From Fistulifera solaris (Eukaryota), in NCBI GenBank assembly GCA_030295235.1, contig AP026134.1, positions 1,178,001-1,242,000 of the forward strand: DNA of 64,000 nucleotides, given 5' to 3'. The first letter of the stretch is position 1, and the number at the start of each line of letters is the position of its first letter. A program made the position numbers and the translations under genes. The notes below the pieces were generated by a model that saw only the letters and a program-made list of their open reading frames with translations, ran no database searches and was not told where the DNA came from. Positions 3,719 through 45,049 of the stretch are shown here, in pieces.

Positions 3719-4949
3719 TTTCGTATAAGTGTCTTTGGCTCTCTTTCTGCTCACCACACAGGTGAAGATTTTTAAAATCCGACTATATATATCCTCGTCC
3801 GTGGCACTTTCTTCCAATATTAATGGCATGCAAACTTGACATCATACACAAGCGGTAATAGGACGAGAAATCGACGTTTGGCTCGTGGCAATAGTTATAT
3901 TGACGTTGAATGTGGCTGACGCCCAAGCGCCTACGGAGGCGGAATGTGCGATTATTGCGTTATAGGGATAACTTTGATGATATCATTTTTATCGCTACAA
4001 GGATATGAACAATGCAAACGAACCCACTACTGACTGCTTTAAAAGTTAAATTTTGTTGTAGAATAACGGCTTAATCCGAGCTACAGACTCCCTTTTTAAA
4101 AGAAAATCGTCGCGACCGTTTCGCGTAGAGTATGTGGACGAAACGTCTTCCATATCGTCAATTGAGTGCTCCAAAGTGGTCAAACGTGTCCTGCTTCCTT
4201 CCAGTTGCTTGAGCGACCAAAGGAACGTGATTCTTTGTAGAATCTTGGCTTCTGATTTGCCATCAATAGCTCGTCAGAGGAAAAACATCTTTGACTCGCT
4301 ATCCCTATCAGAGATCTTGCAGAAGTAATTGTGCTCCTCGAGAAAAAAGCTGCCCCCTAGCAGAACAACAGCGATCCGATTTCGAACCAAGCCATCGCGT
4401 TTTGATTGTTCTCCCAAACGGGAAATTCCAGATATATGTCGGTTCCCGGAAATAAATTTTGCAGAAGCAGCTTGCCTCTATTGATAGCGCGAGGAGCGCC
4501 ATTTAGACGCGGCGCCATCTTAACCTTGGGAATGAGAAGAGGCCTGTTCATCGTCGATCTCTGATCCCTTGTGTTGAAGCGACGTACACGGCAAATTGTT
4601 ACTCCGTATCTGCTTATTTGAATTATAAATCTACGCGGCGTTCCATTCGCAGACAGCGATAATCGCGCAAGAATTCCAAATGGCACTTCCTCTTCTACGG
4701 TACTAGGTACAATAATAGGACATTCATCCTTGCGATTACTCGAGGAGGGACACACACAGATACAGCGCATCGTCTACAACACGTTCGACGAATGGTGATG
4801 GCTTTTGTCGTCATATCGTAGCTTCTTTTCCCAAGCCAATCATTTGATCGTTTCCATTCTGCATTATCATCAGTCGAGAAGCTTTGTTATTTCGTATTCA
4901 GTACAATTTAAATATAATCTCATATTGTTGTTGTTATTGTTTATTTGGT

Positions 4950-5639
4950 CTTTTCATGCAATGATCTTCATTCGCTTTTATTGCTTTTCGTTAGATCATC
5001 TTGTATTCGCCATCAAGAAACAGACACAGACACGTAGACAACACACACATCGAAAATATTGCGACTGAAATAACAAGACTGAAAGCACTTGTCAAACAAA
5101 AAAAACAAAAACATCCATCGTCGAACTCCACCAATCATCACGTAGACAAAGTGCCTCCAATGGACTCGACATCCACTCTTTCCCCCCTTATTTCAATTGA
5201 ATTTCATACGCGTAATTCGCTTATGAGATACGAGCAGGCCGGACTCGCAGTTGCGCTCATGAAAAATATCCAGATGCGTATGTCGTGACATTCATTCGTG
5301 GGTCGTGGGATCCCAACACATGGAGAAAACCGTTGCTCGACACAGAAATACTTAGAGAGCTCCCTCTAAATAATTTTAAATGAAGTTTGTGAACACAAAC
5401 TATATTTTGATTTTACGATAGGAGAAGCGCATCGCTCAATTTTGTTTCTCTCTTTTTTTCGCTGCGCTCTTCTTCTTCTTCTCACATCTCCTCTCGAAGG
5501 CGACTGAGAGAGGTTTGATGTCCTCCCGATATTCAGTTGTTGCCAAAGCTGTGGCCTCGCGATCACAGCTTGGGACCGTATGGTTGAATACTCAGTGGGA
5601 GCGCATGAAGGGTTGTGGTGCGTATGTCCCGAGGGAAGG
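4950..5639 (+). repeat. Unclassified ~3.1 kb repeat, copy A, left part (interrupted by the Copia insertion)
   Basis: Reverse complement of ~49482-50175. The 5150-5520 stretch matches essentially base for base. The left boundary is fuzzy (~4940-4955). Confidence 0.9.
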
Positions 5640-6052
5640 TAACAATAGCTAGAAACGGTTTGCACCTTTCCTGCTATTGGTACCGCTCTCTGAACGAGAC
5701 ACAGTTGACAATCGAACGAACGATAAAGTAGGAGCGACCCTACGCTTTCGCAGCACCGGTGACCTCCAGAAGGGAGCAGTGCTTCAATCGGTCTACCTTG
5801 AGTTTCTCCACAGCACGAAGGGAGAGAAACACAAGAGATGGTTATCGACGGGAGACGAGTAACAACAACAACAAGACAGATCAAAATTATGATTAGAAAC
5901 GTTTGTTATTCTACTGCGTAAAACTGCGATTGCTCCCGAATCAAATCTGCAAAACGTGATAGATATGTAAATTGTGTCACAGCGTTGTCTTGAGGAAAAA
6001 CACAATGACCACGACCAAAAAATCCAGTCGTGAGTGATCCAAACTATTGTTA
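5640..6052 (-). repeat. 3' LTR (413 bp)
   Basis: Direct repeat of 12266-12682, with a 9-bp terminal inverted repeat TAACAATAG...CTATTGTTA. Confidence 0.97.
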
Positions 6053-6066
6053 CTCCCCATTTTTCC
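6053..6066 (-). other. Polypurine tract (PPT)
   Basis: Minus strand reads GGAAAAATGGGGAG immediately 5' of the 3' LTR. Confidence 0.85.
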
Positions 6067-6182
6067 GAAGGGCAACACACACAATTGATTCCAATGTAAA
6101 CATGCAAATGATGTGCTCGCAACACATCATACCAAACCATTGACAACAGTAATTGTCAAGCTTCTTCTTTATCATTCCCTTC

Positions 6183-9100
6183 TTAGTCAATAGGTTTACC
6201 ACCGACAAGGAACAACAAAGGACGAAGGATGAGTTTCCACGTCTTCGCATAAGACCAATGCTTGCTAAGCAGATCAGCAGCATTCAGCTCTCCTGGAATA
6301 TAGTGAAACTCAATGATACCAGAAGCTATAGCTTCACGTACGCGATGATACGATAGCATCGTGTGGCTTTAATGAAGCTTAGAGCCAGGAAGCACCGAGC
6401 TGTCGACAACAGACTTGTTGTCACCGAATAGATAGCTCGTCTTCCGAACAGGGATACCCAAGTAGCGTAACGTTAAACGCAAATCTGTGATCTGTTCAAC
6501 CGCATGATGCGTGCGCACTAAATTCACTTCCATAAGTAGCGGTTTCCACTGTAGCTTGCTTCTTTGAGTACCATTCATATGGGGTATTGTTGATCATGTG
6601 CAGAATTCCTGTAACCGACTTGCCCGTTAGCATATCATGATATAGGTTGGCATCGACATACGTAGTCGTCAATACAGGTTTTCCCAATGGCTCTGGAACA
6701 TCGTGTGGGATCATCTCTTCGGCTCCAGCGTAAACAGAATAATCCCAATCATGTACGACAGTTGGTAACGTGCTGTAATCAGGTTCCGAGACGTCAACGC
6801 GAATAGCGGAGTGACGGAACTTATACAGGTAACCGTAGATGCGTTTGACACGGTCCATATGACCGAACCGAGGCTCAGAACGGAAAGAAGACATCGACAT
6901 GACGGCAGTAAAAATATCAATCCGTCCAATTGTGACAAGCCACTGCAAAGCACCAATAAGCGATTGATAAGTCTTCGTTTTCTCATCATCAAGGAACTCT
7001 GAAGTATCTAGCTCAGGATGATCGTTTTGGTTCCAAAGGCGACTGGTAATTCCGAGGTTTCTGACCAAAGACCTGTTCGTAGTTGACGAACATTCGCTCA
7101 AGATACTTTGTCGGGAGAATAGCTAAGAGTGTTTGTCGAATCTCTGACAAAATTCATACCAAGATGAAACGATATCGGACCTGTTCCCTTCAGCTTGAAA
7201 CCGTACGTATGTTTCAATGCCTCAACAATCAACATTGGCTGTTTAGAGACGATAAGCAGGTCATCCACATACACAGCAATGTATTCGTACAGGTCGTCGC
7301 AGCAGCGCATCCAAACATCGGGTTCCGACTTGACGGAAAGAATCCCAACTCACGTAGTACATCGGCAAGTCGTTCAGCCCATCGATAGTTACTCGAACGC
7401 CAAACCATATAATGCCTTGACGATAACAAGGATATGATCCTTCAACGCTCCAAACTCAGGACCGGCGACGATGTAAACTTTCTCACGTGTTTTGGCCTCG
7501 AGATATGCGTTCCCAACATCAGTTGCATAAAGTTCCTGTTCGTTCAGTTCGGCGACAAAAGCAACAATCCGAACTCCTTTGATAGTAACCACACCAGCAT
7601 AAACATTATCTAACGGAATATCTGTCAAATGTCCATCGGCAACAAGTCTTGCTTTGTGGCGACCGTCATGCTTCACATCGTAAACGAAATGAACACGAAT
7701 CTTCTTGTAACCTTCGGGAGGGCGGACTTTATCTTTATGTCCACAGTCACGGAATGTGGAGTATTCATGGAGCGAATCCGATTCTAGAGCAGTTGCGTCC
7801 ATCCACTTCGTGTTTCCGTTCCGTTCGTCTAACAAAATAGCATGGAGAAAGTTTCGCGGAATCTCATAACCGCACTTGTAGCGTGGGGCCGTATTATAAG
7901 AACGAAGCTTGGCCTGTTTTACAAGACGCTCAAAAACTTTCTCTTTCTTCTTGGCCATTGCACGGAATCGGCGCCATCCATTGGCATGCAGTAGGTCATT
8001 GGCTTTGGCGTAAATCGCACACTCTACCGGTGCCTCTTTGGCAAACTGATCTAATGGTATCCACGTCACCTCCCCATTCTCCCAAGCTACTTTGACATTA
8101 TACGGAGACCCAGCATATTCCTTGTCCTTTACCGTGAGTGGACCCTGGTGATCAACGATCTTGCGGAACTTCCAGACCGTGGGGTTGGCAATATCCCGGT
8201 TGATATAATCCATTACCTCCCCATAAGTGAGCAGTTCCTCAAACTGTCCCTCATTGATCGAACACCGATATTGAATGCGGTTACGATTCTGCTCAAACGC
8301 AGCAACCGCCTCGGCAATATCACCCGCAATTCCGACGATTTTGGCCCGATGCTTGAGCCCTTCCGGATTTTCTGGATCGTGTAAAGGAATGTACGGCCAA
8401 TGAGCTCGTCAGGATGGAATATCGGAACATCGGCACGACTTGAACCATGCTCCCCATCCAATTCGCTGACGAGAGACCAACTCAAGTTGACGAGAAGGAG
8501 GGTTCCATCTCCCCATCAATCGTGACGATGGGCTGAGGAGGAGGTAGAGGATCAACGCGTCGATTAGGATCCATGGTCGTGTCAGCCGAACGCACAGCAG
8601 AGCGATGAATAATACGACGCGTGCCAAGAGTCAAGATCTTAAACGTCATGGCGTTACCGACGTTTTTCGATACTCCCACAAAATAACCGACATCTTCGCG
8701 TGATTGAGACGGAAAAGAATGTGCATCGACGCGATAATAAACTTTCTCGTAAAATCGGAAAACGAATGAACGGGCTTATATCGGGTGTGTCGCCATTCAA
8801 AACACGCAATGGGACGTCTTTGAGTGCACGATTATGCGTATGGTTAAGGATATCGGCGACATGCGACAAACACTCAAACCACAAATCATCTGGTGCTCCC
8901 GACCTGTCCATAACAATATCACAAATTCGTTTGACATCCTGAATCTTCCGTTCAGCATAGTTCTGATGCTGATAACCGCCTTCGCTTTGCCAGCTACCAA
9001 TGAAAAGCGTATCCAAAATGTCCTGGACGCGCTTATTGACTTCCGCTTTGGCTTGGTCGCTGAGAATACGTGTCGGTGCACCACGATCTCGGATGACTTC

Positions 9101-12100
9101 AGTCAAAACCGTGGCAAACTGAGTCTGACTGTGTAGCGGATAGATATCAATCACACCGGAATCAACGCCAACGAAAAGCTGCGCATGTTTCACGCCCGAT
9201 ACCGAGAGCTTTTGTATTGGAAAATATGGTGTCCGTAGCGATCGCCTCTTTCGCGACGAGCAACGTTCATAGCTGGGTGTGGCGACTTAAACAACTTCTG
9301 AAGGACAGGAGAGTTATACTCACGCGCATACTGAGTAGTACGAGCAAAGGTCTCCTTAATGACGTCCGAAACCAAGGTAAGCAAGCATTGGACGGACCTT
9401 TTCGACGTCAACAGGCTTCAAACGGATGTCGAAGATCGGTGTAACGACATGAGCTGGTGGATCCGTGAGAAATCAATGGTTCTCCTTCAGATGGTGCGTT
9501 CAGTGGTGGCAGTTGTTCTGTTGCGGATGTAGTTGGGCTCGTTAGTTGTAAGGAATCGGTCACATTGTTGGTAGCAACAGCGAGAGCTGCAAAAACATCA
9601 ACAATATCTTGGAGATGGTCGAAGCGATCGGAATCCTCGAACGGATCAAAAGAAGGAACAGAGTGCATCACGTTGGTAACAACCCGGGGCGATAGCAGTG
9701 GCAATGACAGTATTATGGAGATGACTGTCAATGTAACTACGGTATTCTCCAAATTCGTCCGAAAAGATTAGCGTCAGAAGTGTCTTCGAGAAACGGTGGA
9801 GGCGGTCCCTTCCATTCGTCATCGTCCATCTTGTGATCAAGCACTGTTGGATCCCAATCCTTGTCGTCGGTGAGGATGATGTGTGGTAATTCATCCCATT
9901 CTTTGTCGGTGTATGGGCGGGATGTCCAACCGACAGAGACCGCGTGTGACGATGAGTGGAAGAACGTATCCATCTTTGGTCAAAATGCGTTGTGTCCCTC
10001 CGACCTTGACGGAGCGGTCATCAACGGATTGTCCGTTTTTCTCCAGTTGACCGGATGAGTGAATCGTGACACCACGTCCTGTGTAAGCGTACTGATGGAA
10101 CACAGCAATTCGCTCCCGACTTGAGTCTTGACAACACCTGCAACGGTACCAATCTGAACCCGAGGCATTTGATGATTATCTATGCCCTGAATATCAACGA
10201 AACGATCTGGAACGGTTAAGTACAAAGTACATCTTTGCCACCAACGCCTCCATTAAGCTCCACGATCGATGAGTGATAACTTGGAATCGGATACCAATCG
10301 ATTGCTGACGATGTAGGTAGACGCCATGTTGATGCTCACCTGCTCGAAATTGACATTCTTCTTGTTGCCGCTGTTTGCTTTCGTGCCTTGTCCAAGTTTC
10401 TTTTCGAGTATTGTGCAGTGATGCGGGATGTGTTGGATGCTTTTCGTTGTGAGTGACGTTGGTCTTTGCTTGGTTCGCCGACATCATACGTCTCTTCGTT
10501 GTTGTAATCGTCGCAATACGAGTCGTTGCGTCGTGGGCAAGCGCTGAAAGCATCTGGCTGAGCGTGATGTCTCCGAGTGAGGCCTCATTCATGTTCGCTT
10601 GACGGATGGTCCCTGGATACTTTTCGCTCACGCTTTGCCGGCGGTTGCTTTGTTGCAGAATTGACGCGATGCATAATGATAGACTTGCCGGCATCAGACA
10701 GTTTATCCCATACGGTGCGGTCCTCAGGAGACAATTTTGACCATTGCTCTCGAGTGAGCTTCGGAAAATAGCCCGTTTGGCCACTTGCAAGATATGCTTC
10801 ATACGTAGCCTCATCATCGGACAATTCACCGTAACCGAATTCCTTGATTGGGTCACCAAAGATGTCATGCGAGTACACGTTGAGTTTACCACCTTTGCTG
10901 GAACCACGGAATTGGTCATCGTGTTCGATAGCGGCCGTCATAAGAGCTTCAATGTATTTCTCGAAGCTTAAATCAGAACCTGTGCCGATTTTCATGATGC
11001 CGGCACTACTACGGACGTTCATCAAACACGGAATACCCTTGATAAGATTCTGAGTGAGCGAATTCTTCATGGCGTTAGACAAACGCTCATTCATCGGAAC
11101 CAAGGAGTCGTGAACGTCGAAGTTCGTCTTGATAACGGAGCAGATAGAATTCATACGACATCCCCTTCCCATCGGTAAGCATCCGAGCACGCATAAGTTT
11201 TGAAAGCAAATCCTGGGCTGTGAGAGAGGAGTTTGTGGAGTCGGTATAGTAAGTCAAGACTTCACGAAAAACTGCTTGTGCATCCTTGTCCTCAATATGT
11301 GCATTGAGAATTTGTCGACTCTTGGCCGTTTTGAGCGTAGTGTCGAAGACAGCGAGCATGTATTTCTTCTGCAATTTAAATAACTCCTCATCCTCTTCAG
11401 TCATAGGTACGTAATCCGGATCCAAAACTTGGGAGCAGTCTTGATTGTCGGCATGTCGTGTCGAATCATACCAGTCGAGCCACTGATTTTGATGTTTCAG
11501 GACCATGAAAGCCGCTTCATTCCGTTTTGCTTTCATGAAGAGCTGCACTTTGGAAGGGGAGTAATGACCGTGTGGAAACTGAATAGATTTACTTGGGGAA
11601 CCTGGTGGTGATTGGGGAGCAAAACCAGGATGAGATGTAACAATCGGAACATCGACAGGAGGCTGCTGACTGTAGTGTTCTTCCCACATATCGAATGTAA
11701 CCGAATAGAAACTTTCTTCACTACGGTAGCTTCGAGTATTCAACGATCGTATGAACTTGTAGAACTTGATAAGTGAGATGATAGCTCCATTCAGTGGTTG
11801 AATACGAATGCTGTTCTGATCGACGAACGAAAGATTGTCGATATATTGTGGTTCGTTGTCGTGATTTGAAATGCATGCATGTATCCATCCCATTAGCAAC
11901 TAGTGCCTTGTAGATAGTGGATTCTCTGGTTACTTTCCCATACACGTTGAACATGAGGTGCTCGAAAGGTGTGAATTCGAGCTTAGTGATTTCCTCTTCG
12001 ACGACGTGGTCCTTTTTCATCTGATACTCGGTGCTCTTTTCATCATCATCTCTATTCTTATCGCTGACATCAGATTCGTTGTGTTCTACGTCGTTATCCA

Positions 12101-12161
12101 CGTTCTTATCAGGATCGGGATCGGGAGGAGGTCGCTTCTTCTCAACCTTGGATTTAGCCAT
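6183..12161 (-). pseudogene. gag-pol polyprotein of the Copia element, broken by many frameshifts/stops in this assembly
   Basis: gag starts MAKSKVEKK at 12161. Protease LIDRGA-NGG lies at ~10255-10275. The integrase core reads (A)TDTIFS...ILSDQAKAE...QNYAERKIQDVK (~9240-8900). RT shows KARLVADGH, TDVGNAYL, KALYGL and YVDDLL. RNase H shows TYVDANLYHD, ETATYGSEF, FGDNKSVV and NAADLLSKHW. Stop at 6183-6185. Confidence 0.92.
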
Positions 12162-12251
12162 GACGCGGTAATCAAAGGAGGTACCGAGTTCAAGGAGAGA
12201 AGACAACAGAGAGCGATCTGATAGACAGAAAAGCTCTTACAAGAGAATAGT

Positions 12252-12265
12252 TGCGACTGTTAATC
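12252..12265 (-). other. Primer-binding site complementary to the tRNA-Asn(GUU) anticodon arm
   Basis: Directly abuts the 5' LTR. The + strand reads TGCGA-CTGTTAA-TC, i.e. the 5' anticodon stem, the CU-GUU-AA loop and two bases of the 3' stem of tRNA-Asn. There is no TGG (CCA-complement) start. Confidence 0.75.
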
Positions 12266-12682
12266 TAACAATAGCTAGAAACGGTTTGCACCTTTCCTGC
12301 TATTGGTACCGCTCTCTGAACGAGACGAGACACAGTTGACAATCGAACGAACGATAAAGTAGGAGCGACCCTACGCTTTCGCAGCACCGGTGACCTCCAG
12401 AAGGGAGCAGTGCTTCAATCGGTCTACCTTGAGTTTCTCCACAGCACGAAGGGAGAGAAACACAAGAGATGGTTATCGACGGGAGACGAGTAACAACAAC
12501 AACAAGACAGATCAAAATTATGATTAGAAACGTTTGTTATTCTACTGCGTAAAACTGCGATTGCTCCCGAATCAAATCTGCAAAACGTGATAGATATGTA
12601 AATTGTGTCACAGCGTTGTCTTGAGGAAAAACACAATGACCACGACCAAAAATCCAGTCGTGAGTGATCCAAACTATTGTTA
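12266..12682 (-). repeat. 5' LTR (417 bp)
   Basis: By eye it differs from the 3' LTR only by a 5-bp GAGAC duplication (~12322-12331) and one A in an A-run. Confidence 0.97.
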
Positions 12683-15074
12683 GAAGGAGGAGTCGTCTCG
12701 CAAAATGGCAACCTCGTGTCGTCTCGACGATTCGCTTGCCTGCTTGCGAGGCTTCCTGCCTTACCGGAAAACTCGCAGTTGGAGCATTGTGCTGGGAAAA
12801 GTTCTTCACCTGAGTTGTGGGATCCATGAGGCGTGCCGAAGAACTGTGTGCGCCAGTGATTGGTGAAGCAATGGTAACGGTTGAGCGGGGTTTGGGGTTC
12901 ACCCGCTGAGCAGCTTATGAAAGCCACATTCGCCTTTCCGCTCCCAACCGGATACATGGGCGTTTGTGATCGCTTGTTGACATCTGCTTAACGTCTTCGG
13001 AGCTCTTGCGGTGCTTATGAGTTATCCTAGAAATAGGTTAGCGGTTACGGGCACTAGCAAGGGTCCCCCATGTGTCCCAGCACAATGAAAAATGTATACC
13101 ACGACACTCTTCATGCTAACACTTGTTCATTTCAAAACCGAATTAACTAAAATTAATAAAATAATACAACAGATGGGTGTACACGGTGGGTAATGGTGAC
13201 GGAAGAGGCTCCTCCATCTGACACTGTCCAATTCTGTGCGCGCAAGCGTTTTCGTGGTCGTGCGGATTGTCATTTGCCCCAGTTTCTCTGCCTTTTGTTG
13301 TGTTGCGCTCTGTGCTCTCTCTAGTATTCACTTAAGTCTCTCTCATAGTATCCTTCACCTTGAAGATTCTGTGTCCTTTGCGGGCATATCATCTGTCGAC
13401 AATGTAGAATGACCGTCCTCTTCCCGGTAGTCACGAGTTTTGTTGCCGTATCGCAACCGCTGGCTAGTGATGCGGTGTCACTAAACCCCGATGCCACTGA
13501 TAACTAAATCAGACATTTGGTTCTTCGCCGTCAATTTTTTCCAACGTCTTTGCTGCCATAAACCCAGAAATAGCCAATGCCGCACTCGAAATTTCAATAT
13601 CTCCTTCGTCGCTTCCATCCTTGCACACTTCACAAACATTCGACGACTCAAAAGTTTTTTCTTTTTCCTTATCGATTCACATGATTGCGACTCGTAAATG
13701 GTGCCTTGACAGGACTAGCGTCGATGGCAGCAATAACCGAATCGCTTTGGCGAAGGAGCCTTGTTTCGTCGATGTCGACGACGCGGAGATGGCAGCTGCT
13801 TCATGTGGAAACCAATTTTCCAAGTTCATAAACCTCCCTTCTGTCCGCTTCTCCGTCAATGCCTTGGTCTTCATCAGTACTGGCAGCTGCATCGGGCAAC
13901 TCGGTGAAAAGATCCTCAAACTCTCGAACGTCGTATTTTAAACTGTCCACTTGCAAGAGCCGAGGAAAAGAGCATAACATTGAAACCAAATGTTAAGCCA
14001 AGGCACGCATTTTGGTAATGTTTTCCATAAGGGTCCCATTCTGGACAAAAGCAGGAGCTCAATTTTGCTCAATTTGGTTCTACTGTTTGAATGCAAGCTG
14101 TCTATTCTGTTTCTTCTCTTGTGTCGTCTTCATGTCACCCTTTTCGACAGTCCAATTGGAATAGAACCCAATTGGAATAGAACCTAAGGGTGGACATGTT
14201 AGAGAAGAATAGGGGCTCCCCGAGCGGTGTCATGACTCATTCAGCAAGTAAAGGACGTATGGATAGGAGGCCATGTTCTTCTTCGCACGGAAACAAAGCT
14301 TGTTACGTCTTTGTTGCCGAATTAGTTCTGAACTCCCATAAAAGCCAATCAATCGTTGAATGAAGGATCTTTGTCAGGTGAACTTGACAGGACCAACATG
14401 CGCGATTTCTTCCGAAAAAGTCACCCAGTACGTCACCGTAACCTCTGCTCGACATCGCCAGCTAGTTCAATCATTGGTAACATTTGCAGTTGGTCCACCA
14501 CTGAGCAAGACTTAGCGTCAAGGAAACGACATGCGTCAGGATGGTCCCCGCCGTTCATATAGATGTTGTGACTGGCGGATACTGCACTGGCTGCAGTTGA
14601 TAGTAGATTCTCATTGCGCCGACAGCCCGCTCAAAGTGAAAGCCGTATCGCTGCTTCTTTACCACTCTATTGAGCTAATCGCAAGGAATAACTTTCCCTC
14701 TGATCAAGTGATTTGATAGCCCCCTGGGCATTTGCCGGCTTCGGAAAGATGCTTCGAACGATAGTCATGCCGCTTATAGGGACAGCATAGAGATGCAAAC
14801 GGCTGATCTGCGTTTTGCGTTGCTGTAGAAACCGTAGAAACGGACCAGAAGTTATTCATCACGTCCCAATTTCGTTGTTCTTATAAAAAAAATCGAATGG
14901 TTCCATTCAAGATGCGAGAAAAATTTCCCCACAATCTCATCTCGCTGTCCACACTGAAATTCCGAAAGTACTTGTATCACCGTTTCGGCTGAATTAGATC
15001 ATCGGTTTCAGTTTAATGTGAAAAGTGTTTGCGGCTGTCCCAGTATCGAGATAGCGGAGCCTGACGTGAATTAC
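12683..15074 (+). repeat. Unclassified ~3.1 kb repeat, copy A, right part
   Basis: Reverse complement of 47087-49486. Paired ORF-track translations match (e.g. MYPVGSGKANVAF, MPLITKSDIWFF, MNEGSLSGE). Homology ends at ...GCCTGACGTGAATTAC (~15074). Confidence 0.92.
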
Positions 15075-38846: not shown

Positions 38847-39686
38847 ACATTACTTGATACAATAGGCATTTTAGTTGTACAATTGTATTTCGTAACTCTA
38901 AGACTAAGCTGAAAGCGTTGCAAGCCTGAGCACTTGCTTTGCGAATTCGAGTGAGTAGAATAACCCGACGCAAACGTTCGGTGTTCACAGTTATGCGATT
39001 CTGTTTGCTTTGCTAACTGATGAGTGATGAAGTGATGAACATTTCGTGATGCATCTAGTGCGTGATAAACATGGAACATGAATCACGATCGACCATGGTT
39101 GCTTGTCCAACAAAGCAGCGCTGAGGCTGACTAACCCTAACGCTTTTGGATGTCGATATCCGATAACTATTAAGTATCAAGGGGGTCCAAGTAATCTGTG
39201 ATCTGTAAAGAATATAGTAGTACTTGTACCCTAGTACTACTGACTCCCAACTCCCGACTGACTTTGTCACCAAGGAACGAAGAACAATTTGATCACAGAA
39301 ACCTATTTTATTTTACAGTAGCCTAGTCTTCTGAATAATTTGGAATAGGGACGTCAGAGTAGCTAGAGTAACTACCTGGTACCAGTAGGAAATTCTTTTC
39401 GTACAGCCCCAAGGGCCCAAGAAGGTCGCATGACTTGACGTCATAACTCCTTACAACAATGTCGATAGTTGGATACAAGAGGTCACGAAAATACGAAAGA
39501 CCTGACATAAAAAGTCAAGCACGTATGGCACGCAGAGGACGAACGACAAAAACGTTTTAATTTTCAAATGAGAGAATTGAAACTTGTAGTTCTCGACAAG
39601 CAGGATCTTGTCTTTCTCAAATAATTACTTTGCGCAAAGCCGTTTGTCAACCGCCGTTTGTCATCAATAACAAGGCGAAGCGTCAC

Positions 39687-42600
39687 ATGCCGACACCACC
39701 GTTATCGACTGCTCTTAGTCAAACCGAGAACACTCAGATGCCTAAGCTTGCTACGTCCGATCAGACAGCGAGCACGATGTATGTGAGCGACGGCTCCGAA
39801 TCGAACGGTGACGATGACGTCTCGACGTCAAGCGACGAGGACTCTGAGAATTATTTACTCGAGCATCAGCGAGATGATGCGAGAATGCGAGCATCCCCGA
39901 CAGCTTACAACGTCGGTCTGCAGGCAGAAAGAAATGGTGTCAATGTTGCGCGACCGGACAACAAGATGCTTCGCTCGTCGGCTACTTCCTACGCCACAAG
40001 CTCATCAGAAGGCGACTCCAGTGATTTCTGTGACGATTCGGAATACGACGAGTTGCTAGATACTCTTCCGATTTCACTGGCTCGACGTAATACCAATCAA
40101 CTCCACCGTGGCACACTTTTCGGAATGAACCTTTTGTCGGGAAATACGAACGTCGGGGCGGAAAACACAAAGAAAGACGCTGATCACCCGCAAACTATAT
40201 CAAATGATAAATTTACAACCAACTTGTCGGATCACTTGGAAAAGACACAAGAGCTAAAAGTCTTTGACGCCGAAATTGGGTCTTCGATCATGATCTCTCA
40301 AGAGGACTTGGACGAAAGCGTTTCATCATCGTATAGTGATGCGAGCGATAGCGAGGAGGACAGTGAAGGCAGCATGTCGGAATACGACGCATTGATGGAA
40401 ACTATGCCTACTCATACAGCAGCAACTACTATGTCCTCGCTGCAGCTGCAGCGAAATACGCAAGCACCGGAGCAGTCGGTCACTCCTATGCCTGTTTCGG
40501 AAGGATTGGATTTGACAATGCTGATGAATCTTCGCTCAGAACTCGAAAAGGTCGGCCACATGATTGTTGAGAAAAAGGAAGGAGAAAAGTTTTTGAGACG
40601 TGCGCATATATTGGCATCGATCAATATGCTTGCTGCATACATTCCAGCTTGTGTCGTGGATCATCTCAGTCAAGAGATCCGTGAAGCCATTGCAAAGGAA
40701 ACTGATCGAGTCGAGAGCTGCAACATGTCCATGGGATCCAATACGGACTCATCGCTTTTACCATCCGAGCAAATAGAGACATCCCGTCGTTTTCGCACGA
40801 TTAGAGATATCGGCCCACTACGACAAGACAGCGAGGACGAAGACGATGATGACGATGATAATACCGACGGTCGTAGCAGCAGTGGACTGAAACTGAATCT
40901 TCCTTCCAACCTCGTGAACAAGTCTGGAAGTTCTGGTGGTTCGAGCTCTAAATCTTTGGATAGGTTCTTGGAGAAGGAAGGCGAGAGAAGAATGTCAATT
41001 TCTTACAACGAAAGTCGACCTGTCGCTGTTGCTGATGAGAAATTAGATGCCTTGCCTGCTGCAGCGCAATTTGAGGGTGCCGTCATGTTTGTTGATGTCT
41101 CGGGCTTCACAAAGCTAGCAACCGTGCTTGATCCGGAAAGCTTGTCAAAAGTAATCAATTCATACTTTCAAATGATTGTGAACAAAGTCCATGAATATGA
41201 CGGGGATGTTCAGAAGTTTGCCGGCGATGCACTATTCGCAGAATGGAGAGTAACCGAGAAACGAGGATTGCACCAGTGTGTTGGGGAATCAGCGGCTTGC
41301 GCTGCTAGTATGGTTAAAAGTTGTGCAAACTTTCCGGTCCTTGGACTCATAAGTGCGGTTGAGGCTGTTAATGCAGCAGTCACCAGCCTCAATATTCACG
41401 TCGGCTTAGGTGTTGGACGAATGACAGGAGTACACGTTGGTAATAATAGCTATCGCCGCGAATACTTGTACATTGGTCAATCAATTTTTCAAGCGACAGA
41501 CGCATGCAATAGAGCGAGCTTGGGTCAAGCTATGGCTTCACAACCGTTTATCGATATTCTTCAATGCATTTCACCACAAGCCATCGACATAGACGAACGT
41601 AATTGTCTAGTTGCGACTCCAGAGGGATCATTGTACGATCTTTCAGAATATAGTAAAAGGGTTCTTGTTCGAAATGCGAGGTCGAGAGGTGTTACCGATA
41701 AAGTAGAAGGCCTTCAGGAGGAGGCTTTGATGGAGTACCGAAGATTAATGTCGCTTTACGTGCATCCTGTGGTTGTAGCCAACGACATCGCTGTTTCGGA
41801 TGGGAGCATTGCTGCGAAAGCCACTGTCGATACAAAGGAGAGACACATGGAAGAGGCTGAAATGCGAAGTGTCTACGTTATGTTCATCAACTTGATACTT
41901 CCATCGCACCTGGCCTCCCTCTCCGGTGATTTGAACAAAGACGCTGAACTAATTCATTTGCTAAACGATACGATGAATTTAGTTTCCAGCAAGCTAGAGC
42001 AATACAGCGGCCACTTGCGACAATTCATTGTGGATGACAAAGGATTTGTTATGATCGCTTCCTTTGGTCTCCGCGGATCAACGTTTCCGAATATGGTGTC
42101 GGAAAGAGCCCTACCTGCAACATTTCTTGTTTACCAGTCTCTAAAGATGGAACTTGGTCTTGAAGTGCGAATCGGCGCGACGTTTGGAGATGTGTATTGT
42201 GGTGCCATTGGAGGAGATAAACGTCATGAATACGCAATGCTTGGGCCTTCGGTTAATTTAGCGGCTCGATTGACACATTCCACCGACAATGCAGGCATAC
42301 TAGTCGATAACTCCGTGCGTCAGCTTGCTTCTCAGGCATTTGGCTTCAACGCGCTGCCCTTCATCAACGCCAAAGGATATTCTGAACCAGTGCCCATATT
42401 TGAACCATATAGACGAACCGAGAGGAGATGGGGCGCACCTGAACCGCACTTTGTTGGTCACAGGGCTTCCATCGAGAATTTGTGCCATACGTGCAATGAC
42501 ATGGCTGATTCTCGTCCAATTGCGTCCAAGCTCGGGTTGGTTACGGGTGAAAGTGGTATGGGGAAATCGACATTTCTTGTTCATTGCATTGATCAAATCA

Positions 42601-45049
42601 AAAATAATATGGAGTCATATGGTTTCGACGTAATCATTGCCCAACACGTCGCCCTTGACAGCGAGATCTTGATTCCTTTGTCAGGGTTTTGTCCCATCTT
42701 TCTCCGTATCCTGGCGACGTACACTGACCGAAGAGACGACCACCTTTTCGGTTCGACCGCAGCAATTACATCGTCTCGTGTCAAGAGCGCCATCAATAAA
42801 ATCGGACTGGAATTGGGAGCGCCTTCACATGTAATTACTGCCTCTACAAGACTTTTACTCAACCCTGCTGGTGGCTTGGAGTACAACGGTCCGAGTAAGA
42901 AAGCCCTTGCTTCATTCATGACTCATGCTTTTTGCGTTGCACAGAGAACTGCAAGCTAGTTGTAATAGCGGTTGATGACATCCATTTTGTTGACGAATTG
43001 TCGTGGAACATTTTGAAACGGATATTTGAGTATAGTCGCAATACCTTTTTACTCGGAAGCTCGCCTCAGGATAAAAGTGCCTTGAAAATTTCACCTGCTT
43101 TCAGAGATGCAATCGACAATGTTTACACCGGCGAGGGAAGGTTCATCGAGATTTCGTTATCACCACTTGATGAAAATGATATCGGGATAATGATAAGGAG
43201 AAAGCTTGAGCTACAAGAGAGTGAACTCACCCCGGAGCTGCTTACGGAAGTTGTTTCGCAGTCGGGTGGTATCCCGTACTTTGCGAATAAGATCATCAAT
43301 AGCATCAAGGAGCGCAAAGCGAGTGGTCACAACTGTCTTCAAGAAGAAAAGTCCCTCTCCGAGATAATCATTCATCGAATTGATACATTTGACTTGAATG
43401 TTCGCAATATTCTAAACATTGGCGCTGTCCTTGGAGAGTCGTTTACACTTGGTGAAGTGGTAGCCGTGCAAATGGAAGCCAAGGACGCAAAAGAAGAAGA
43501 TGTCCGTAAACAAGCTACCGAGTCATTGAAAACGGCAGTCAGGGAAGGCATTCTCTCTTATGGAAAAGGCGGAACAAGAACCGCAGCCTACATTCCTGAA
43601 ATCGATCCGCGGGACGACAGCGCTACCTTTTCGTTCTTCCAAAGCGTTTGGCGCACAGTTCTTTTGGGATTAATGCTGACATCCAGAAAGAAGGACGTTC
43701 ATCGAAAAACCGCAAGTGCTCTAGAAGGTCGCGTTCACGAAGGAAGCTTCACGAAAGATTGGCTGAAACTGTTTGAACACTGGAAAGCGTCCGGATCTAC
43801 AGCAATGTCAACCAAAACAGCGCTTTCTATTGGAAAGATGCTAGTTGATACTCCAATGCTGGAAGATAGCGTGCGCATCTATAAAGATACGCTCGAGATG
43901 TTCGGATGGGAACATGACGGACGTTCGGGACTTTCATCAGAAATTCTCGAGCTTTTGCCAGAACCAGATATTAGCCAGATTGTCCGACTATCGGTAGCCC
44001 TTGGCGAGGCTCTCGACCAATCTTCGAAGCACAGGGAGAGCACATCCACGTTCGAGAAAGCAGTCCAAATAATGCAAGATGCGAAGTCGGCATCAAAGAT
44101 AAAAGACCGCTCCATCATATTCCCTGCCTACGTGAGACTCACGGATGCTATCAACAAGGGCCATATCCAGCAAGACGTTTATTGTCGATACGAACAATCG
44201 CTCCTGACTGGTTTCATCAACGAAACCAGAGTTCACGGACGGTTGATTCATCATATTCAGGCCCTATACTTACAGATGATCCTGTATAGTCGGCAGGGTC
44301 GAAATGACAAAGCCATTGCCGTACAAAGTGTGATCAAAAACATATACAAGCCTGTGATTCACACCAAAGGTCTCCGTACTTGCTATGGGATGGATTCTGG
44401 CGCTGTGAGTTTCTCTCTTTGTTCGTATCTTCAGATGGAGCAAGGAAATAGGCGAGAAGCCCTTCGTGTATGTCGTCATGTTTTGAAGACTTTGATTCCA
44501 AAGATTGAAAGTGATCGTGAACAATCGTTCGCATTAGTGTACCCTCTTCTCTTTGTTTTGAAAGACTCCGGCTTCGGATCACAGGCGAAACAAGTGTTTG
44601 AAAAAGTGATACTCTTTCCCTTTCATGGATGGGAGACTTCTGGTTTATTTGGTATTATTGAGCCGATTTTTGAGCCTCTTCTAATGCTGCTGACCTTGTC
44701 GACAAAAGAGGACATCCGCCAAGACACGATTCAAGAAATAATGGACTTTGTTGGCAAGCGCTCCAACATCTTAAACAGCGAACAAATGAACTTGCACCTT
44801 GGAAGATTGGGTCGTTGTGGAGACTCCATTTGTGCAGAATTGTGTCTCCAGCTAGCTTTACGTTTGCCCATGGACAGCGAGGCAAGAAAGAACGTGCTTA
44901 CATATGCCAGGCTGGTCGTGTCTACAGCTATCACTTTTAACCGGAAACACCGCCTCAAGTTCGCCCTGGCTAATGTTCAGGTCATCCGAGAGCAGATTAA
45001 AGCTGTATCCGGGGGAAGTGATCAAGAACACGCAAGACTGGCCTTCTAG
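39687..45049 (+). CDS. Soluble adenylate cyclase (ADCY10/sAC-type): two class III cyclase domains, P-loop NTPase and helical repeats
   Basis: C1 MFVDVSGFTKL and VQKFAGDALF; C2 RQFIVDDKG and EYAMLGPSVNLAARL; Walker A GESGMGKST; Walker B VIAVDDIHF; SGGIPYFA. 1-bp frameshift at ~42932 in a T-run. Confidence 0.92.

Follow-up and report, generated by a model that had tools for sequence, protein, structure and literature searches.

A stretch of 14 nucleotides adjoining the 5' LTR of a Ty1/copia element in the diatom Fistulifera solaris is, on comparison of sequences, very probably the minus-strand primer-binding site (PBS) of this element, and the predicted primer is a 5' fragment of cytoplasmic tRNA-Asn(GUU). 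The element lies in a stretch of 64,000 nucleotides (contig AP026134.1, positions 1,178,001 to 1,242,000), the whole of which was analysed and is referred to here as the window; positions are counted from its first letter. A half-tRNA mechanism using tRNA-Asn had been proposed in a sequence-only reading of this DNA. The proposal is now well supported in silico by the match of the 14 nucleotides to the anticodon arm and by their conservation across relatives of the element.

The element is located on the minus strand, measures 7,043 bp (5640-12682) and contains the sole LTR pair of the window. Its 3' LTR (413 nt, 5640-6052, TAACA...TGTTA) and its 5' LTR (417 nt, 12266-12682) align end to end and differ by one 1-nt indel in a homopolymer and one 5-nt indel. 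The same 5-mer, GAAGG, stands directly outside both LTRs, at 5635-5639 on the 3'-LTR side and at 12683-12687 on the 5'-LTR side. The LTR boundary is therefore set by the LTR alignment and this 5-bp duplication, independently of the PBS. Since the LTRs are near-identical, the element appears to be young and its insertion recent. The LTR termini are TA...TA in place of the usual TG...CA. The 3' LTR is adjoined by a polypurine tract (6053-6066, minus strand), read directly from the sequence as GGAAAAATGGGGAG in element orientation. A 339-codon open stretch on the minus strand (7389-8408) encodes the N-terminal part of the reverse transcriptase (RT; RVT_2, Pfam E 1.4e-12). Thus the features of a Copia element are present: direct LTRs with a target duplication, RVT_2, a PBS at the 5' LTR and a polypurine tract at the 3' LTR.

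The remaining coding region is less easily recognized. An integrase-like stretch lies 5' of the RT on the element strand (8654-9286, minus strand) and aligns to residues 885-1031 of the relative P0122. Its Pfam rve match is weak and below threshold (E 0.014, 16 bits against a curated cut-off of 32.6), and the order of integrase 5' of RT, which depends on this weak match, is consistent with Copia. The gag region (11087-12161, minus strand) was located by tblastn with P0121. Its ATG is at 12161, 90 nt past the PBS, and residue 1 of P0121 falls on element position 522. P0121 represents a second copy of the family; it is a Fistulifera solaris hypothetical protein from a 4.8-kb contig and its RT is 99% identical. 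No gag, protease or integrase was found in the window element by Pfam at 0.001, and the same models were missing from P0122 (1,881 residues) and P0121 (1,507 residues), where RVT_2 was the only hit at E<=0.001. The Pfam gag, protease and integrase models were built from Copia elements to which this lineage is very distantly related. A word-indexed search with the gag piece (270 aa) gave no match among proteins of 148-473 residues. Despite the near-identical LTRs, the coding region (6053-12265, minus strand) contains at least nine frame switches relative to P0121 and P0122, which also break the gag frame. One of these is a single extra base relative to P0121. The frame switches may reflect a dead copy or indel errors of the assembly.

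Several observations concern the surroundings of the element. When the element and one GAAGG copy are removed, joining 5366-5639 to 12688-12987, a minus-strand ORF of 166 codons spans the insertion point, and the element may have interrupted a host ORF. A 92-nt direct repeat is present at 334-425 and 748-839 (72% identical, 414 nt apart). A further open frame, on the plus strand at 39561-45049, is very long (1132 + 716 codons); it encodes an adenylate/guanylate cyclase domain and has a weak match to AAA_16. Neighbouring genes encode LRR proteins, a GBP-type GTPase, a MatE transporter and Vps26; the surroundings of this long frame are an ordinary compact diatom gene neighbourhood. The Vps26 protein is 99% identical to a protein of Fistulifera solaris, which agrees with a host that is this diatom or a very close relative of it.

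The plus strand reads TGCGACTGTTAATC at 12252-12265 and continues with TAACA, the first LTR bases on that strand. On the element strand, the 5' LTR is thus followed by GATTAACAGTCGCA (12265 down to 12252) with zero gap and without a TGG, and the coordinates and letters given for it in the sequence-only reading hold. Because the site does not contain TGG, no tRNA 3' end is able to pair there. Read in tRNA sense, the site starts with a 5-nt stem strand. This is followed by a 7-nt loop with T in second place, GTT in the centre and AA at the end. The site closes with two bases that pair with the final two of this stem strand. The anticodon complement in the PBS is AAC, which corresponds to the anticodon GTT of tRNA-Asn and not to initiator tRNA-Met. 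The layout as nucleotides 27-40 of a tRNA-Asn(GUU) anticodon arm was likewise borne out, as it matches real tRNA-Asn genes.

These genes were found in viral contigs. The 17-mer obtained by completing the stem occurs at 97 viral-contig loci, and the first 60 of them, which represent phage and giant-virus tRNA sets and not diatom genes, were scanned with ARAGORN. A tRNA-Asn(gtt) gene was called over the match in 58 of the 60, and no tRNA was called at the other two. Judged by these gene calls, the arm is widespread among the natural tRNA-Asn genes of phages and giant viruses. The 64-kb window itself contains no tRNA gene.

For the host tRNA, contigs of four sequencing runs were aligned at 80% likeness to a giant-virus tRNA-Asn (L018:274-347). 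Two contigs aligned to this reference, both from one run, in which 0.80 of the sampled words of window positions 4001-14000 occur; none came from the other three runs. None of the listed runs that contain this stretch is recorded as RNA. A contig of 414 nt with a depth of 26 aligned to reference positions 294-336 with 4 differences in 43 nt and no gaps. The aligned span comprises the 3' strand of the D-stem, the whole anticodon arm (301-317), the variable loop and most of the T arm. As no gap occurs, the host tRNA is without an intron. The continuations of the contig form an acceptor stem of 7 bp and add a discriminator base and a T-run, as is typical of nuclear tRNA genes transcribed by pol III. 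In the contig, the 3' strand of the T-stem finishes with the three bases past position 336. If the T-stem is to pair, reference bases 323-325 must all differ, and at least three of the four differences then lie in the 5' strand of the T-stem. The other 40 aligned positions, which include the 14 of the PBS target, can in that case contain at most one difference. The evidence is thus strong but incomplete that the nuclear, intron-less host tRNA carries an arm identical to the PBS complement or one position off, given one contig of nuclear type and the assumption that its T-stem pairs. The host tRNA thus supports the proposal in part, through a nuclear tRNA that aligns over the arm with a limit of one mismatch. 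A second tRNA-Asn-like contig had a depth of 220 (about 8 times higher), AT-rich flanks and 5 differences in 43 nt over positions 280-322; it is probably a plastid or mitochondrial tRNA-Asn. A stretch of 19 letters from the loose 5' end of the host tRNA proved not to be specific to Asn and unsuitable as a proxy for the host gene: its nine viral loci were phage-type tRNA-Met (seven) and tRNA-Lys (two), and none was tRNA-Asn.

Conservation of the site was analyzed in relatives of the element. HMMER with the RT piece gave 7,425 relatives at E<=1e-3, 15 of which were aligned for the retrieval of metagenome-contig DNA. The best 80 of 494 confirmed stretches were used, which correspond to 78 metagenomic loci with an RT 50-59% identical to the query. 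No relative of the RT piece was found in viral contigs. With up to two mismatches, the 14-mer gave 36 matches in 34 of the 78 loci on the RT strand compared with a single match on the opposite strand. An 11-nt core, GATTAACAGTC, was found on the RT strand in 39 of the 78 loci with up to one mismatch and was exact in 38 of these 39. The base directly in front of the motif (-1) is A in all 39, and the preceding LTR-like end is CA in 24 and TA in 15. The motif is placed 3.5-5.3 kb upstream of the RT, or 1.6-2.6 kb downstream in LTR-collapsed contigs, whose ends overlap by 91-147 nt at 98-100% or which are tandem. Conservation is gone after PBS position 14. The 300-nt flanks of the motif form 29 and 30 clusters at 80% identity, so the loci represent many families (about 29) and not copies of one. 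Among the 42 loci of at least 5.5 kb, 17 contain a direct repeat more than 3 kb apart, and the motif is present in 16 of these; in the 17th, L179, the repeat does not flank its RT. The matches in relatives were picked by the core motif and the apparent invariance is thereby inflated; this selection would not produce the sharp borders of the motif, its fixed place or its preference for one strand. The PBS is conserved far beyond the element's own family.

The other 39 loci are without the motif, and most of them appear to be contigs too short for the junction. In 13 of the motif-less loci the junction was projected by tblastx to lie inside the contig. Eleven of the 13 have no recognisable PBS (L110, L118, L120, L132, L141, L148, L160, L176, L179, L181 and L182), and their true junction may lie outside the contig. 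In two near-identical relatives (L145:288-301 and L146:64-77), a typical LTR end is followed by GATTAACCGTTCGC, a degenerate form of the Asn-type PBS that contains one additional base and a single substitution opposite U33. ARAGORN detected no tRNA gene in the 78 metagenomic loci. Contigs of the clade with terminal overlaps (L117, L119, L122, L127, L128, L133, L154, L168 and L173) and head-to-tail arrays of about 7.7 kb (L111 and L140) were also observed. Most likely the assembler merged two LTRs in these cases; one-LTR circles or true tandems are possible.

Among the 39 motif loci, variation is confined to the three positions that pair with nucleotides 27-29. The variants are GCA (13 loci), ACA (12), TTG (4), TCG (2), GCG (2), TCA (2) and others (4). 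We placed them on an RT tree of 42 rows, made up of metagenomic relatives and the window only (the 39 motif loci, L145, L146 and the window copy). The variants require 15 changes compared with a minimum of 10 and are clustered, yet switched repeatedly. The window row is on a long branch and its placement is unsure. Arms with two of these variants were sought in tRNA genes and also occur there: ARAGORN called a tRNA-Asn(gtt) gene in 32 of 120 viral-contig loci for the ACA variant and in 20 of 117 for the TTG variant, and no other tRNA type was called over either set of matches. Thus PBS variants correspond to natural upper stems of tRNA-Asn.

The best reading of the element's anatomy, taken together with copia and Ty5, is the following mechanism. 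The PBS would pair with nucleotides 27-40 of tRNA-Asn, a segment that covers the anticodon stem's 5' strand and the entire loop and ends two bases into the 3' strand. Because priming requires a free 3'-OH where this duplex ends, the primer would have to be what remains 5' of a cut in the stem's 3' strand, made after about nucleotide 40 of tRNA-Asn. This 5' fragment would anneal to the PBS and be extended into U5. We infer that the fragment exists, is packaged and primes. Half-tRNA priming has been shown experimentally for copia and Ty5 (references 37 and 38 of PMC10886601). The conservation border at nucleotide 27 may mark the point where the reverse transcriptase, copying the primer during plus-strand strong-stop synthesis, is halted by a modified G26. 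Position 26 is commonly m2,2G in eukaryotes and is G in the reference tRNA. It would then play the part of the base that delimits the 18-nt PBS in retroviruses.

The sequence-only reading had also described a hairpin of the LTR end and the PBS that could gate primer access. A hairpin does exist in the window element. At the length first described (13 nt), the hairpin, TGTTA-GAT-TAACA, has a folding energy of -0.1 kcal/mol. An extended form (12252-12275, minus strand) pairs the last 10 nt of U5 with the PBS in 7+2 bp around the loop GAU and reaches -6.5 kcal/mol (z -3.2), and only 3 of 200 shuffles fold as well. In 7 of the 39 relatives at least six consecutive pairs are kept in the same register. 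Against a gate, 24 of the 39 form one pair in this register, five form two and three form three, and no compensatory changes were seen in relatives with other LTR ends. Moreover, the minimum-energy fold of the 76-nt context does not contain the hairpin (z -1.66). Any LTR whose last bases happen to be TGTTA, a mirror of the anticodon-loop complement, gives rise to the hairpin. Its loss in most relatives and the 76-nt fold rule out gating as a general feature. The hairpin is thus lineage-specific, and we regard a gate on primer access as improbable.

The motif might instead bind the anticodon loop of an intact tRNA-Asn, or another factor, in packaging, dimerisation or translation control, with priming achieved otherwise. 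Conservation by itself demonstrates constraint and not priming, and the constraint is strongest on the part complementary to the loop. However, the conserved block extends beyond the loop and also covers the partners of nucleotides 39-40 and the stem strand. In the window element the motif follows the end of U5 without any gap, exactly where a PBS must be, and the LTR-like end with its A at -1 is common to all 39 relatives. No alternative PBS was found either, given that the site is without TGG and that the element shows no self-complement of 8 nt or more. A non-priming role therefore has a slender chance.

Self-priming of the Tf1 type, in which the 5' end of the transcript folds onto the PBS and is cleaved into a primer, would fit an element that has no canonical PBS for a tRNA 3' end. 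It is reported for some plant Copia lineages (PMC6317226). Here, the 30-nt PBS region has no complement of 8 nt or more in the 5' LTR and leader, and the longest is a single 7-mer, which rules the mechanism out for this element. Self-priming would also need covariation, but the motif is invariant while the LTRs of the relatives are unrelated. We consider it very improbable. The site has, then, no better match to a tRNA 3' end or to the element's own 5' end than to the anticodon arm of tRNA-Asn. That the likeness is due to chance is practically negligible: within the window the 14-mer is not over-represented (one match at up to two mismatches, 0.44 expected), but the strand asymmetry across 78 diverged loci and the LTR-like junction at the 39 core loci speak against it. 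By these sequence counts, the significance of the 14-mer comes from outside the window. Priming by a tRNA-Asn 5' fragment is the reading we carry forward.

Half-tRNA priming had been taken to use initiator tRNA-Met, and this part of the earlier interpretation is not sustained, as Ile, Lys, Arg, Tyr, Asp and Asn primers have been published. In plants, the survey of Neumann 2019 (PMC6317226) assigns 1/2 tRNA-Met to Osser, Bryco and Gymco-II and 1/2 tRNA-Ile to Bianca; tRNA-Asn appears there only among the 3'-end primers. In fungi, FunCo1 has an internal tRNA-Lys site (Donnart 2017, PMC5445492), and Candida albicans families have internal tRNA-Arg(UCU) and iMet sites (PMC4139406). For fungal Helenus and Copia elements, Kojima 2024 (PMC10886601) reports that the anticodon loops of Tyr, Ile, Asp and iMet tRNAs serve in priming and, in a single case, that of Asn-GTT. 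The use of Tyr and Asp also rules out the idea that all half-tRNA primers decode ANN codons and share t6A37 (PMC10886601). As far as these sources go, half-tRNA priming and non-initiator primers, including Asn in fungi, are already published, and the present finding describes no new mechanism. What is new, judged by the sequences compared, is that the predicted Asn half-tRNA has become fixed in a broad clade and that this clade belongs to a new group of hosts.

The window element resembles Drosophila copia and yeast Ty5 in that its PBS adjoins the 5' LTR, has no TGG and pairs with an anticodon stem-loop. This likeness points to a primer released from the 5' part of a tRNA by cleavage in the anticodon stem, as predicted here from the sequence. 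Unlike copia and Ty5, which use iMet, the window element would use Asn(GUU), and the likeness drawn here is one of priming layout. Helenus and its Copia partners share the same primer type. However, Helenus is described as fungal and mostly non-autonomous with tRNA-like LTRs, and its use of Asn as a single switch (PMC10886601), whereas the present element is an autonomous-type diatom Copia and Asn is shared by the clade (39 loci, about 29 families). As in Bianca and in Osser, Bryco and Gymco-II, the half-tRNA PBS is a lineage-level trait of a Ty1/copia clade; the tRNA and the host kingdom differ from those given in the plant survey (PMC6317226). With FunCo1, the element shares a PBS that starts with the complement of nucleotides 39-40 and of the loop (ATTAAGAGTCT in FunCo1 as printed there) and a primer other than iMet (PMC5445492). 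It differs from FunCo1 and the Candida families in its tRNA, and the hosts named for those are fungal (PMC5445492, PMC4139406). The fungal GalEa elements are described as having, in the place of the PBS, a 'conserved hairpin site', a palindrome or hairpin that spans the LTR end and has no tRNA complementarity (PMC5445492). In contrast, the hairpin register of the present clade (at least six pairs) is kept in only 7 of 39 relatives and the complementarity to the tRNA is conserved.

The CoDi lineages, too, are Ty1/copia elements of diatoms and are plentiful in ocean metagenomes (Maumus 2009, PMC2806351). A term search of this main diatom retrotransposon paper met no mention of primer binding, tRNA or polypurine (PMC2806351). 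Our literature searches returned no PBS described for diatom elements, and a search on diatom tRNA halves gave nothing diatom-specific among the matches listed.

With this site, diatom Copia elements gain a defined, predicted primer. The half-tRNA-Asn PBS is a stable trait of a clade seen in many metagenomes and not a one-off, and the invariant 11-mer beside the LTR end provides a simple annotation marker for this clade. Because they vary, the upper-stem positions could be used to test for a link between an element and the tRNA of its host. A more far-reaching joint reading, which we hold to be rather unlikely as a whole, is that of a widespread Copia clade obligatorily primed by a 5' fragment of tRNA-Asn(GUU), with four corollaries. 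The clade would span diatoms and probably related protists and would be environmentally widespread. The 11 nt that pair with nucleotides 30-40 would be frozen, and the complement of nucleotides 27-29 would be rewritten from the host tRNA-Asn in each replication cycle. If so, the upper stem would record the tRNA-Asn isodecoder of the host and could be used to assign orphan metagenomic elements to their hosts. The length of 14 nt would be set by a block of reverse transcription at modified G26. Finally, retrotransposition would be coupled to a nuclease that cuts the anticodon stem of tRNA-Asn, for example under stress.
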